A DNA stretch of 37,184 nucleotides from Rhodospirillaceae bacterium (GTDB lineage: Bacteria > Pseudomonadota > Alphaproteobacteria > Rhodospirillales > 2-02-FULL-58-16). Under the pieces are notes generated by a model. It did not search any database and was not told the origin of the DNA. It saw only the letters and a list, made by a program, of their open reading frames with translations. Below are positions 3,797 through 37,023 of this stretch, piece by piece (the first letter of the stretch is position 1; each line of letters begins with the position of its first letter). The DNA lies in NCBI GenBank assembly GCA_013349695.1, contig DUZD01000002.1, forward strand, positions 1 to 37,184, given 5' to 3'. Position numbers and translations under genes: made by a program.

Positions 3797-4708
3797 TCAG
3801 GGCAGCTTCACCCGCCGCTCAACGGGATTGGCCGGATCGGTGGTCCATTCGGCCAGCGAGCCGTCGTACATTCTTGTCCGCTTGTTGCCGAGGATTTCGT
3901 AAGACACGAACCAGCCCAGGGACGCCCAGTGGCCGGTGTTGCAGAAGTTGATGACCGGTCCCTCGGTCGGGGCGCCGGCTGTCTCGTAGAGCTTGCCGAT
4001 TGCCGAGGCATCGCGGAAAGCGCCGCCGCCGTTCCTGGTCAGCCAGACGCCCGGCACGTTCTTGGCGCCGGGGATGGTGCCCGGGCGTTTGACGGAACCG
4101 CTTTTGTTGATGCCGAGGAACTGGTCGCTGGAGCGGTTGTCGATCAGGGCCGCGCCGCCGTTTAGCGCCCGTTTCACGTCCTCGGCGGTGGCCAGCAACT
4201 TTGCATTCATGCGCGCCGTGAAGGTTTTCGGCCGGGGTTTGCTTTTGCCCTTGGCCAGGGGATTGGCGCGGTTGGCGAAATAGCCGGTCATGCCGCCGTC
4301 GAGGATGGAAACCTCGTCATGGCCGAGGACCTTGAATGTCCAATAGAGGCGGGCCGCCTTGGCCATCTCGCCGGCGCCGTGGCCGCCGGCAACGACGACC
4401 ACGTGGGTTTTGTTGTCGACGCCCAGACCGCCGATCAAGGCTTGCAGATAATCGATGCCGGGAAGCAGGCCCCTGACGCCTCCCTTGTTGACCCGCCAAC
4501 CCTTTTTGCCGCCATAGTCCGTATGGACGGCGCCGGGAATGTGGGCGTTCCCGAACTCCCGCTTGCCGCGAACGTCGAGAAACACAACGCCGGGCCGTTG
4601 CAGGTTGGTCCCGACCCAGTCCGCGTCGAGGAGCGGTTCCGCCGCCAGGGTTTGACCGGCTAGAACGAGGACCGGGAAAAAGGCAATAAACAAAAGGCTT
4701 TTTTTCAT
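3797..4708 (-). CDS. Secreted tandem-rhodanese sulfurtransferase (thiosulfate/3-mercaptopyruvate sulfurtransferase-like)
   Basis: Start chosen at ATG 4708 (MKKSLLFIAFFPVLVLAGQTLAAEP, signal-peptide-like); the track ORF extends to 4744. There are two rhodanese-like halves, with an active-site loop FCNTGHWAS near the C-terminus. Confidence 0.75.
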   Translation of the reverse strand: MKKSLLFIAFFPVLVLAGQTLAAEPLLDADWVGTNLQRPGVVFLDVRGKREFGNAHIPGAVHTDYGGKKGWRVNKGGVRGLLPGIDYLQALIGGLGVDNKTHVVVVAGGHGAGEMAKAARLYWTFKVLGHDEVSILDGGMTGYFANRANPLAKGKSKPRPKTFTARMNAKLLATAEDVKRALNGGAALIDNRSSDQFLGINKSGSVKRPGTIPGAKNVPGVWLTRNGGGAFRDASAIGKLYETAGAPTEGPVINFCNTGHWASLGWFVSYEILGNKRTRMYDGSLAEWTTDPANPVERRVKLP

Positions 4709-15659: not shown

Positions 15660-15772
15660 ATTTGGAAATTCGGTGACAGCATACTTAATTCGCGCCCCCT
15701 TGCGGCGGACAGAGATGGAATTTCAGTAATCCCTGATATTGAATTAAGTATGCTGTCACCGAATTTCCAAAT
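15660..15772. repeat. AT-rich 32-bp perfect inverted repeat with 49-nt loop (element A)
   Basis: ATTTGGAAATTCGGTGACAGCATACTTAATTC (15660-15691) is the exact reverse complement of 15741-15772. Its last base is the first base of the pfkB stop-codon triplet (15772-15774). Confidence 0.9.
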
Positions 15773-16636: not shown

Positions 16637-16899
16637 ATACCAAGGATCGACGATAATGACCCATAGAGACGGTTTCCCAAGGCTTTCGGCTAGGAGTGCG
16701 CGGCGTGGCGATGCGGGGCATCGCGAGACGGGCACGACGACGTCCGAAAGCCTTGGGAAACCGCCGTTCCGGTCGCCTCGGCGCCCCGTCGGAGGGCGTC
16801 GAAAAGTCTTGACGATGTGCCGCATCGCCGGCAACTTTTCTCCTACCCGACGGGGCGCCGAGGCGATCTCTATGGGTCATTATCATCGATCCTTGGTAT
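16637..16899. repeat. 263-bp nested-palindrome intergenic element (element B)
   Basis: 33-bp terminal inverted repeats (16637-16669 / 16867-16899, one C.A mismatch) enclose two 94-nt hairpin units in inverted orientation. These are 16670-16763 and 16773-16866, each closed by a perfect 20-bp stem and separated by a 9-nt spacer. Confidence 0.9.
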
Positions 16900-17348
16900 T
16901 ATCCCTTCTTTTCCCAGCCGCCGCTGTCGGTCTGCTGCCAGTACGTCAGTTCGTGGCCCGTTTCCTTATAGGCCTTCCAGCATTTCCGCGCCGCTTCGAC
17001 AGCCGCCGGATCGTTGCCGTCGAACAGCTCGAAACAGCGCTCGTAATCGCCGACGCGCTCGGAGGCCGCGCCATCGGTCAGAAACAGGAAAGTGGCGCCG
17101 TTAGGGGTTTCGTCGCCGATCGCAAGCCAGATCGGCTGGTCTTCGGCGTTGCCATCCTTGCCGCCGCCGTGAGGAAGCCAGGAACCCTGTTCGTAGGTCC
17201 AGAGCAGCGAATTCAGGGCCTCGACCCGTTGCGTGGATCCGGCGACGACAACCGCCCGTTTGCCTGTTGCCAGGGTTTTTTCCAGAAGCTTGGGCAAGGC
17301 CGCCTCCAGAGATGATTTCGTCAGGTGGTAAAAAGCGATTTCGGTCAC
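16899..17348 (-). CDS. holC: DNA polymerase III chi subunit
   Basis: MTEIAFYHL...RAVVVAGSTQRVEALNSLLWTY...WLPHG is typical HolC, 149 aa, directly downstream of pepA. Confidence 0.85.
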   Translation of the reverse strand: MTEIAFYHLTKSSLEAALPKLLEKTLATGKRAVVVAGSTQRVEALNSLLWTYEQGSWLPHGGGKDGNAEDQPIWLAIGDETPNGATFLFLTDGAASERVGDYERCFELFDGNDPAAVEAARKCWKAYKETGHELTYWQQTDSGGWEKKG

Positions 17349-34880: not shown

Positions 34881-35906
34881 ATGACCGTCGAGGCGAATGG
34901 AAGCGAAAAACCGTTGGCCCTGACCATGGGCGAACCCGCCGGCGTCGGCGCGGAAATCGCCCTCAAGGCCTGGCAAGGCCGGAATGGCGGCACGCCCTTG
35001 TTCTTTCTCCTCGATGATCCGCCCAGGCTCAGACGTCTGGCCGAACATCTCGGCCTCGACATCTCCATCCGCGATATTGACTCGCCCGCCGAGGCGGCGG
35101 CGGTATTTTTTTCATGCCTGCCGGTTTTGCCCCGTCCCTTGGCCGCCGATCCGGTTCCGGGGCAACCGGATCCCGCCAATGCAAACGCCGTTCGCGGCGC
35201 CATCGAGGCCGCCGTCCGGCTTGTTCAATCGGGAGAGGCCGGCGCCGTTGTCACCAACCCCATTGACAAGCGGTGTCTCCACGCGGCCGGTTTTCCCTTT
35301 CCCGGCCATACCGAGTTCCTGGCCGCCCTCTCCGGAACCAACAGCCGGCCAGCGATGATGCTGGCTAACCCGGAGCTGCGGGTGGTCCCGGTCACCGTGC
35401 ATTTGAGCCTGGACCAAGCTGTCAAGGCGCTAACCCCTCGGGATATCGTGGAAACGGCGACGGTCGCGGAAGCGTCGTTGAAACGGGATTTCGGCATCCC
35501 CGAGCCGCGGCTGGCGGTGGCCGGGCTTAACCCTCACGCCGGCGAAGGCGGCATCATGGGCGCCGAGGAAGGATCGATCATCGAGCCCGCCGTCGCCCTG
35601 CTGCGGCAACGGGGCATCGATGTTTTCGGCCCGGTATCCCCCGACACCCTCTTTACGGCTCTAGCGCGCCAACGATACGACGCCGCCATCTGCATGTATC
35701 ACGATCAGGCCCTGATCCCGGTCAAGGCTATCGGCTTCGAAGAGACCGTCAATGTTACCCTGGGCTTGCCGTTCGTACGCACCTCGCCCGGCCACGGCAC
35801 CGCTCTCGACATCGCCGGCACGGGCCAAGCCAGCGCCGCAAGTCTGGCCGCCGCCTTGAGCATGGCGGCGGCGATGGCGCGGCGCCGCGATGCCGGCAAT
35901 CCCTGA
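34881..35906 (+). CDS. pdxA: 4-hydroxythreonine-4-phosphate dehydrogenase
   Basis: ATG 34881 (MTVEANGSEKPLALTMGEPAGVGAEI), GHTEFLA and HGTALDIAG motifs. The earlier part of the track ORF overlaps the surA 3' end. Confidence 0.9.
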   Translation: MTVEANGSEKPLALTMGEPAGVGAEIALKAWQGRNGGTPLFFLLDDPPRLRRLAEHLGLDISIRDIDSPAEAAAVFFSCLPVLPRPLAADPVPGQPDPANANAVRGAIEAAVRLVQSGEAGAVVTNPIDKRCLHAAGFPFPGHTEFLAALSGTNSRPAMMLANPELRVVPVTVHLSLDQAVKALTPRDIVETATVAEASLKRDFGIPEPRLAVAGLNPHAGEGGIMGAEEGSIIEPAVALLRQRGIDVFGPVSPDTLFTALARQRYDAAICMYHDQALIPVKAIGFEETVNVTLGLPFVRTSPGHGTALDIAGTGQASAASLAAALSMAAAMARRRDAGNP

Positions 35907-36176
35907 GAGCCCGTCCGGGGAGTTATTGATGTTTCTCAATGCCTTGTGTTTTTGTTCCGGTAGGAGGCGGGGGCGCCGTGATGCCGGCGCATCACAAGCG
36001 CCCGCCGACGCCCCGGAGCGGAAACACAAGGCACCCAAAGGGCGGGCTGGAAGGGCGCCCCTGCCGCGTCCTGGAGCCTCGACGATGCTCCGGCATCGCC
36101 TTCGGCCCCACTCCTTGCATTGGCGCCCTTCCAGCCCGTTGAGAAATATCAATAACTCCCCGGTCGGGCTCTGAGG
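35902..36176. repeat. 275-bp nested-palindrome intergenic element (element C), same architecture as element B
   Basis: 38-bp terminal inverted repeats (35902-35939 / 36139-36176: 35 Watson-Crick pairs, 1 G.T, 2 mismatches) enclose two hairpin units. These are 35940-36033 (94 nt) and 36043-36138 (96 nt), separated by a 9-nt spacer. The left repeat contains the pdxA stop codon. Confidence 0.9.
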
Positions 36177-36183
36177 CCGGACC

Positions 36184-37023
36184 TTGTCCGCGCCTGTCTC
36201 TCTGCCTCCCCTGCGCAATGTCATCAAGCGCTTTCGCCTCGGTGCGCGGCGCTCCTTGGGGCAGCATTTTCTCCTCGACCTCAATCTTTGCGCACGGATC
36301 GCCCGCGCCGCCGGCGACATTTTCGGAAGCACCGTCATCGAGGTCGGCCCCGGCCCCGGCGGCTTGACGCGGGCTCTGCTGGACGCCGGCGCCGCCAAGG
36401 TGGTCGCGCTGGAACGGGACGAACGTTGCGTCGCCGCCCTTGCGGAGCTTGCCGCCGCCTATCCGCGACGCCTGGAAATCGTGGAAGGAGACGCCTTGGA
36501 GACCGATCTGGCCGGCCTTGCCCGCCCGCCGCGGCGCATCGTCGCCAATCTGCCCTATAACATCGCCACGCCTTTGCTGATCGGCTGGCTTCGGCATATC
36601 GGCGATTTCGAAAGATTGACGCTGATGTTCCAGAAAGAAGTCGCCGCCCGCCTCGCCGCCCGTCCCGGGACCGGGGAATACGGGCGGCTTTCCGTCATCA
36701 CCCAGTGGTTGTGCGAGGTTCGCCGCGAATTCAACGTCGGCGGCCGCGCTTTCACCCCGCCGCCCAAGGTCGCATCGACCGTGGTCACCCTGAACCCGCG
36801 TCCAAAACCACTGGCCCCGGCCGCCTGGGACGCCTTGGAAACGGTGACCGCCGCCGCCTTCGGCCAGCGCCGCAAGATGCTGAGGTCGAGCCTGAAACCG
36901 CTATGCTTGGAGCCGCGAGAACTGGGCATTGATCCGACCAAACGGGCCGGGGAATTGACCGTCGAGGAATTTTGCGCCCTGGCCCGGCGGCATAAACAAG
37001 GGCTCTCGTCGCGTTCTCTTTGA
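36184..37023 (+). CDS. rsmA: 16S rRNA (adenine1518/1519-N6)-dimethyltransferase
   Basis: LGQHFLLD, VIEVGPGPGGLTRALL, NLPYNIATPLL. TTG start 8 nt after element C. Confidence 0.9.
   Translation: MSAPVSLPPLRNVIKRFRLGARRSLGQHFLLDLNLCARIARAAGDIFGSTVIEVGPGPGGLTRALLDAGAAKVVALERDERCVAALAELAAAYPRRLEIVEGDALETDLAGLARPPRRIVANLPYNIATPLLIGWLRHIGDFERLTLMFQKEVAARLAARPGTGEYGRLSVITQWLCEVRREFNVGGRAFTPPPKVASTVVTLNPRPKPLAPAAWDALETVTAAAFGQRRKMLRSSLKPLCLEPRELGIDPTKRAGELTVEEFCALARRHKQGLSSRSL

Follow-up and report, generated by a model that had tools for sequence, protein, structure and literature searches.

A 275-base element made of nested palindromes (positions 35902-36176), here called element C, separates the genes pdxA and rsmA on contig DUZD01000002.1 of a Rhodospirillaceae bacterium (GenBank assembly GCA_013349695.1). 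The stretch analysed, hereafter the window, comprised positions 1 to 37,184 of the forward strand of this contig (37,184 nucleotides). Element C is a mobile insertion into the stop codon of pdxA, whose TGA it duplicated. In our judgement it is probably a non-autonomous DNA transposon resembling the miniature inverted-repeat transposable elements (MITEs), which belongs to a large family present mainly in Alphaproteobacteria, is mobilised in trans and carries a core working as a folded single strand. Of the features by which a MITE is recognised, terminal repeats, a target duplication together with its empty site, a small size with no coding function, and dispersed similar copies were found; an autonomous partner was not found in the fetched 8-kb loci or in annotated plasmids. 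An earlier note on this DNA, made from the sequence alone, had described the layout of the element and its likeness to another one in the window, element B; the transposable insertion on a stop codon and the switch of strand between the two hairpin units of an element were missed there.

In the three relatives with the closest PdxA proteins (98, 89, and 88% protein identity) the gap between pdxA and rsmA was 9-10 nt, in agreement with the earlier description of this junction as normally tight, and no matches to the covariance model described below were present in their loci. The alignment of a close relative (locus L121; 96.7-97.6% DNA identity to the window by BLAST) broke at positions 35911 and 36171. 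Its empty site reads AATCCC TGA GGCCGGACC TTGTCC, with a single TGA and a 9-nt gap, and the occupied site in the window reads AATCCC TGA, followed by the insert (GAGCCCGTCC … GGTCGGGCTC) and then by TGA GGCCGGACC TTGTCC. The insert proper spans 35907-36171 (265 nt) with the duplicated TGA on either side; the duplication is at most CTGAG, as the flanking C and G chance to be complementary, and the outer C-TGA…TGA-G of the 38-nt arms of the element consists of the target duplication plus these two bases. The right-hand TGA followed by GG restores the TGAGG found ahead of rsmA in the empty site, and both this sequence and the stop codon of pdxA were preserved by the insertion. The rsmA start (36184) lies 8 nt beyond the right 38-nt arm and 277 nt after the pdxA stop; a recent, clean insertion explains this gap at an operon junction that normally has 9 nt.

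At the junction of the 88% relative (L122 and L124, 4024-4040) the pdxA TGA is followed by a 10-nt spacer, GAGCCCGTCC, whose sequence also makes up the first 10 nt of the terminal repeat of element C, and the closer relatives L121 and L126 have GGCCGGACC or GGCCGGGCC at the same place. The spacer of L122 and L124 may be what an earlier element left behind when deletion between short repeats removed it, or a target that resembles the element end.

Elements B and C hold two hairpin units each (C1 and C2 in element C; Table 1). Alignment of the four units on the strand that reads AGGAG gave a core with fixed spacing, AGGAG-N13-GATGC-N4/5-CATC-N13-GACG, and closing stems around it that had no common sequence; in both elements the core of the left unit lies on the + strand and that of the right unit on the - strand. 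A scan with this core pattern, in which each species was represented by one genome, returned at least 120 loci, nearly all of them, among the matches listed, from Alphaproteobacteria. The carriers were Rhodospirillales, Kiloniellales, many Hyphomicrobiales/Rhizobiales (with rhizobial members in Pararhizobium, Ensifer, and Allorhizobium), Sphingopyxis, and a few Acidobacteriota. Inquilinus, Pararhizobium arenae, and Ensifer sp. LCM 4579 are among the cultured carriers, and copies amplified recently are present in, e.g., the MAG CAXXKO01 and Inquilinus limosus DSM 16000. The covariance-model search that the earlier note had proposed was carried out with a model built from 112 complete units and recovered the family. 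The four units of the window scored 75-89 bits in the sense orientation and around 18 bits in the antisense orientation (88.7 bits, E = 1e-19, on the + strand for C1, and 75.2 bits on the - strand for C2), and 217 units were obtained in total in the 128 loci searched; element C is thus, as had been proposed, the second member of a real family in the window together with B. The model matches were spaced 2-7 nt apart in 84 complete +/- doublets, and most of the other units were cut by contig or chunk ends. Eighteen pattern-defined doublets (B, C, and 16 in other genomes) were folded; three of them were cut at a contig end, and the same three-way shape appeared wherever the element was complete, with a central hairpin of 3 bp and 3 nt in nearly all members. 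In the common blueprint, terminal inverted repeats of 33-40 bp enclose two mutually inverted hairpin modules of ~95 nt with the mini-hairpin between them, and B follows this plan with terminal repeats and stems unrelated to those of C, as the earlier note had it. In a control with predicted viral contigs the core pattern matched 29 contigs, none of which was scored by the covariance model; the pattern alone therefore gives chance matches in viral contigs. As scored by the model, the pattern matches in bacterial genomes are almost all genuine structured units.

Variants of the blueprint had one unit only, a second hairpin of another kind, or an extra small palindrome nested in a stem. In L030 (335-534) both cores lie on the same strand and the first one reads AGAAG instead of AGGAG; one unit has presumably been flipped by recombination between the arms of its closing stem. 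Two single-unit versions of 170 nt, flanked by CTAG (L005, 3399-3568, and L057, 4733-4902), display one core-bearing hairpin at the tip of a long terminal-repeat stem. Another small G+C-rich palindromic repeat (GCGGGGGCGTCCCCCGCATAC…GGGGGGACACCCCCC) is nested in the closing stems of L083 (5235-5557) and L098 (5862-6123), so that repeats have been inserted into repeats. Model-confirmed members beyond Alphaproteobacteria were present in metagenome-assembled genomes (MAGs) of Acidobacteriota/Holophagaceae (L009, L025, L056, L057, and L061) and in an Akkermansiaceae MAG (L096), and they represent either horizontal spread or mis-binned contigs.

The whole of element C had no match in the plasmids searched, and a rhizobial copy matched four plasmid records only, with none in the megaplasmids of S. 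meliloti. No match to Rfam 15 was obtained at gathering thresholds over the whole window, and permissive scans of C, B, and the rhizobial copy gave only spurious plant-microRNA-precursor-like hairpins, far below threshold. Literature searches on RIME1/2, Bru-RS1, and MITEs in rhizobia and Alphaproteobacteria yielded no description of the element. We consider the family new, or at least uncurated, but of a kind already known (MITE).

Clear terminal repeats were found in 61 of the 84 doublets from other genomes. These repeats fall into unrelated classes, across which the internal hairpin core is conserved. In the TACCAAGG class, identical 3-nt TNA flanks were observed in 19 of 22 elements (TTA in 11, TAA in 5, and TGA in 3), and since the middle base is equal on the left and on the right, this is a true duplication. 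Other classes (with ends GTACCCAC, GTGGATAG, GCCCGCATTTC, or GAGCC…) showed TA on both sides in 28 of 39 elements, often within CTAG. The flanks of a relative of element C in L022 are TCA…TCA. As regards copies, six loci of one MAG hold elements 95-98% identical to each other, and the subfamily of element C occurred in other contexts in L016 (95% identity; partial, cut by a contig end), L132 (89.5% over the full length), and L022 (77%). The terminal repeat of element C is also present in L016 (95% identical) and L132, and more distantly in L022 and L023; a search of metagenomes with its exact 25-nt sequence gave no match. With the empty sites described above and these many copies, the sequence is not a conserved, single-copy intergenic region of the relatives, an outcome that the earlier note had named as contrary to its view. 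Two copies of the family (B and C) occur within the 37 kb of the window, and many contigs end inside copies. Relics (half elements, and terminal repeats that are solo or partial) were found at gene ends, in keeping with the decay expected of mobile palindromes.

Remnants of this type, consisting of solo or partial terminal repeats or of half an element at gene ends or junctions, were located in L062 (7861-7886), L129 (~4297-4325), L130 (1646-1675), and L114 (3255-3319). The TAA stop of the host gene lies inside the remnant of L129, and that of L062 follows directly after a TGA stop; all four look like decay products of the family. In L131 (~4245-4320) two terminal-repeat-like ends abut, facing outwards with TTA between them (…GAACGGGCTC TTA GAGCCCGTCCGGG…), and the contig ends soon after; this arrangement resembles the junction of two elements or a circle junction.

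Coordinates of element C, its neighbouring genes and element B are given in Table 1. The layout reported in the earlier note (terminal repeats of 38 bp, units of 94 and 96 nt, a mini-hairpin of 9 nt, three T·G oppositions in C1, and the gene coordinates) was recovered in full at the same positions. The predicted folding energy of element C was -199.9 kcal/mol on the + strand (z = -16.3) and -197.3 kcal/mol on the - strand (z = -16.2), and none of 200 dinucleotide shuffles folded as well on either strand. When the arms of the C1 closing stem were paired by hand, they formed 18 Watson-Crick and three T·G pairs on the + strand; the same three positions are A·C on the - strand, and the fold predicted for that strand leaves them open. 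Open reading frames (ORFs) overlapping the element are mechanical read-throughs only, and its 265 nt are nearly all paired in the predicted fold. The identity of pdxA was given by homologues with PF04166, up to 98% identical.

Table 1. Coordinates of element C, the genes on either side of it, and element B in the window.
Feature	Position	Strand	Size	Description
Arms of element C (inverted repeat I1)	35902-35939 / 36139-36176		38 nt each	92% complementary
Left terminal inverted repeat proper	35907-35939		33 nt	GAGCCCGTCCGGGGAGTTATTGATGTTTCTCAA; from inverted-repeat detection
Right terminal inverted repeat proper	36139-36171			Boundary from empty-site comparison
Left target-site duplication	35904-35906	+		TGA; stop codon of pdxA
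Right target-site duplication	36172-36174	+		TGA; from empty-site comparison
Hairpin unit C1	35940-36033	+	94 nt	21-bp closing stem with 3 T·G pairs
Conserved core of C1	35962-36010	+		AGGAG…GATGC…CATC…GACG
GTAGGAG motif in C1	35960-35966	+
Central mini-hairpin	36034-36042		9 nt	CCC-AAA-GGG, CCCAAAGGG
Hairpin unit C2	36043-36138	-	96 nt	22-bp closing stem, 91% complementary
Conserved core of C2	36067-36115	-
pdxA	34881-35906	+	341 aa	Ends in TGA (35904-35906), the left target-site duplication
rsmA/ksgA	36184-37023	+	279 aa	TTG start; PF00398 RrnaAD, E = 4e-47
Element B	16637-16899			TACCAAGG terminal-repeat class; between holC (PF04364, - strand) and a pfkB-family kinase gene

The insertion into a stop codon was not peculiar to element C. 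Of the 122 sides of the 61 elements whose ends were clear, 37 had a convergent ORF of 100 codons or more that stopped exactly in the duplication, against a background of ~0.4 such ends per position in the preceding 150 nt. Because every duplication contains a stop-like triplet, the duplications were compared with control stop triplets: 47% of the duplications vs. 13% of the control triplets ended an ORF of at least 100 codons, and 23% vs. 3.6% ended one of at least 300 codons. Expressed from the side of the genes, 29 of the 72 nearby convergent long ORFs (~40%) ended exactly in the duplication. At several elements two convergent genes both end through CTAG. This enrichment at stop codons may reflect true targeting.

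Long convergent ORFs ending at both ends of the element were seen in L012, L018, L088, L076 (2912-3179), and L115, where TA and the first G of the terminal repeat make up a TAG on each strand. Such cases suggest that the target was a CTAG in which two convergent stop codons overlapped.

Covariation and wobble pairs were counted in a model-based alignment of 150 units. Standard pairs occupied 92% of the cells vs. 61% in shuffled alignments, the covariation score was 0.754 (vs. 0.19 in shuffled alignments and ~0.12 when the partners were slid by 1-3 columns), and double-sided changes were present in 33 of the 35 pairs. On the AGGAG strand G·U pairs outnumbered A·C oppositions overall (383 vs. 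75), with 107 vs. 6 in the inner stem P2 and ~175 vs. 15 in the inner half of the closing stem, and the outer half of this stem was symmetric (47 vs. 39). Within one element the two units fold on opposite strands, and the elements lie in both orientations, so that strand-biased mutation cannot explain the excess of G·U; the wobble bias reflects selection for the folding of a defined strand of each unit. The G·U asymmetry that the earlier note had seen in C1 therefore held across the family as more copies were collected, but it applies to each unit (+ strand for C1, - strand for C2) and not to the element as a whole. In the same way, the idea that a defined single strand is what matters was borne out unit by unit, but one plus-strand RNA of ~270 nt cannot hold both selected forms.

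In the consensus of the ~48-nt core, a small asymmetric loop terminates the closing stem and is followed by a G-C pair and by G-A opposite G-A, which would have the form of a tandem G·A motif. Further in, there follow a covarying stem of 6-7 bp, a loop with a conserved AAG on its 3' side, the GATGC/GCATC stem, and a loop of 3-6 nt. The motif highlighted by the earlier note, GTAGGAG, had to be shortened, since the two bases that precede AGGAG vary across the 150 aligned units and the conserved motif is AGGAG.

We propose that the elements would be mobilised in trans by a DDE-type transposase making T(N)A duplications of 2-3 bp, and that the different classes of terminal repeats may be served by different cognate enzymes. 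T(N)A duplications, a CTAG context, and ends that begin with GAG are typical of the IS5-group (IS1031/IS427) and IS630/Tc1-type DDE transposases. From the type of duplication only, and as a lead rather than a test, we infer an enzyme of one of these types. Elements of the IS5 group (IS1031/IS427, e.g., IS711) and of IS630/Tc1-mariner share with the present family the TNA or TA duplications, often at CTAG, and some ends that start with GAG; in contrast with them, no transposase gene with the ends described here was found in the fetched loci or in annotated plasmids. The ~48-nt core of each hairpin would work as a folded single strand, the two ends using opposite strands that are related by two-fold symmetry, as in transposon ends. 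Since no other part is shared between the classes of terminal repeats and between phyla, we consider the core most likely to be needed for propagation, as a hairpin or cruciform DNA module for structure-specific recognition or assembly. With read-through from pdxA, the pdxA-rsmA messenger would contain the element as a very stable folded three-way rod, which is probably tolerated and not a selected function.

Several points weigh against this interpretation of element C. No autonomous partner, that is, a transposase gene between the same ends, was present in the fetched loci (8-kb genome pieces), and the terminal repeats alone gave neither a match nor an autonomous partner in annotated plasmids. 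The terminal repeats are the least conserved part of the elements and the internal core the most conserved one, whereas the reverse is found in ordinary MITE families; a simple model in which a transposase binds the ends does not predict this pattern. The enrichment at stop codons could be passive, as T(N)A is scarce outside stop codons in G+C-rich genomes and insertions within genes are purged. The copies are not independent samples and the raw pair counts overstate the number of evolutionary events. Moreover, the strand-specific G·U signal would also fit a function in RNA, and elements at gene ends are almost certainly transcribed. In the search for an autonomous parent, the solo terminal repeats in the loci proved to be truncated relics, and the partial terminal-repeat matches in metagenomes were relics at gene ends without a transposase.

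A further reading goes beyond the individual insertion, and we put it forward tentatively. The defining and functional unit of the superfamily might be the one-strand hairpin core itself, with its tandem G·A loop and GATGC/GCATC stem, recognised in folded form (single-stranded DNA, cruciform, or RNA) by some machinery, and the elements would then make up a MITE superfamily united by structure and not by ends. If this were true, candidates for such machinery would be a structure-specific transposase subunit or a host factor common to Alphaproteobacteria and some Acidobacteriota, and the core, combined with a T(N)A target rule by which stop codons are restored, would allow harmless colonisation of stop codons and tight operon junctions.

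It is rather unlikely, in our estimation, that the hairpin cores are RNA modules in 3' untranslated or intercistronic RNA, acting as a stabiliser against 3' exonucleases or as a processing or protein-binding site, in elements whose mobility is still due to transposition. Such a role would have made the element harmless or useful and would explain its persistence. The inverted arrangement of the units, which puts a sense unit first in the path of a transcript from either side, would suit it, as would the strong covariation, the excess of G·U over A·C on one strand, and the sharp strand discrimination by the model. Read-through is to be expected at the gene ends and operon junctions at which the elements are located, and by our own reading of the consensus the internal loop is shaped like a tandem G·A motif, which protein-binding RNAs often contain; repetitive extragenic palindromes (REPs) have been proposed to act in this manner (PMC3733652). 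However, the orientation of the units with respect to the abutting gene was random (4 vs. 3 for asymmetric one-core elements, and 8 vs. 7, by a hand tally, for two-unit elements with units of distinguishable subtypes), and thus gives no support for a role tied to the host transcript. In addition, Rfam gave no match even at permissive thresholds, no promoter-like site was found in or around the element and no terminator-like site on the pdxA strand, and a function of benefit to the host would not obviously keep the core across phyla while the ends diverge. A known ribozyme or riboswitch was rejected, because no model matched and both strands of a single element carry the core.

We regard as very doubtful that element C is a REP- or REPIN-like element moved as single-stranded DNA by an HUH tyrosine transposase (the REP-associated tyrosine transposase, RAYT, or an IS200/IS605-like enzyme) that recognises a hairpin and its 5' tag. 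REPs, REPINs, and BIMEs have in common with the present family the inverted hairpin dimers, the imperfect palindromes with a preferred strand, and a location downstream of convergent or co-directional genes, and in some species the dimers are embedded in longer palindromes (PMC3733652). Head-to-head dimers, strand-specific folding, a position downstream of genes, and a GTAG-like start in some units, including C1, likewise resemble REP doublets. REPs are 20-40 nt long, with stems of 8-9 bp and a conserved GTAG or CGTC tag (PMC3733652), whereas the units described here have ~95 nt with a 48-nt core and the GTAG tag is not conserved. Moreover, REPs are without terminal inverted repeats and target duplications, and the present elements have long terminal inverted repeats and clear T(N)A duplications with a matching middle base; to our knowledge, HUH single-strand transposition does not yield such terminal repeats and duplications. 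No RAYT gene flanked by units was noticed in the 8-kb loci, in which no systematic search for it was made. Membership in the REP/RAYT group was rejected, as the size, the tag, and the presence of duplications disagree; the inverted dimers agree (84 doublets).

A fixed, lineage-specific and non-mobile regulator or terminator of the surA-pdxA-rsmA operon, to which the location at an operon junction and the extremely stable hairpin could have pointed, is refuted by the empty sites and the multi-copy distribution, since a relative ~97% identical and two more distant ones lack the element, the duplication being clean, homologous copies occur in unrelated contexts in many genomes, and the + strand has no U-tract terminator.

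Among known mobile elements, the transposon interpretation of element C finds its closest parallels in bacterial MITEs with structured interiors (Correia of Neisseria, ERIC/IRU, the RPEs of Rickettsia, and Nezha/Chunjie), which are likewise small, non-coding, and multicopy, with terminal inverted repeats and short duplications. These MITEs are 100-300 bp long, insert at gene ends, are co-transcribed with their neighbours, and can fold as long hairpins; Correia elements have a TA duplication and ERIC/IRU come from enterobacteria. In contrast to all these families, the elements described here have a conserved core repeated twice in inverted orientation, unrelated classes of ends, and a strand-specific wobble bias; no sequence similarity to the Correia, ERIC, RPE, Nezha, or Chunjie families was noted, and Rfam gave no match. 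RIME1/2 of Rhizobium, CIR of Caulobacter, and Bru-RS1/2 of Brucella are alphaproteobacterial intergenic repeats described as large palindromes; they are likened to the present family by description only, and some of its members may be one of these earlier-named repeats (RIME, CIR, or Bru-RS). An analogy of principle exists with integron attC sites and with the inverted terminal repeats of parvoviruses such as adeno-associated virus (AAV), in which structure prevails over sequence and one defined DNA strand is folded and recognised. The outline of the element, with two small hairpins inside a long stem, is also that of the AAV repeat. Unlike these systems, the present elements have no attC R and L boxes, no integrase or Rep context, and another size, and they are chromosomal insertions with target duplications.

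The core pattern and the covariance model provide a searchable definition of a large, apparently uncurated repeat family, which breaks many alphaproteobacterial metagenome assemblies, as shown by the contigs that end inside copies, and which can be mistaken for structured RNA genes. A core conserved across unrelated ends, the strand-switching bias, and the figure of ~40% at stop codons make the family a test case for structure-specific recognition in transposition or for the domestication of MITEs at the RNA level. Presence or absence of the element between genomes ~97% identical makes it useful as a strain marker.

With regard to element B, its right flank TTA (16899-16901) is the TAA stop codon of holC on the - strand, and its left flank is TCA, the duplication being therefore imperfect (TCA/TTA). 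Several marine MAGs contain copies that match element B along its whole length at 84-87% identity. A third palindrome of the window (15660-15772), unrelated to B and C, lacks the AGGAG core and gave no model match; it has perfect arms of 32 nt (ATTTGGAAATTCGGTGACAGCATACTTAATTC) and a 49-nt loop, its A+T content is high for this genome, and a small terminator-like hairpin (GAGGCTTTTTATAGCCTC) comes after it.

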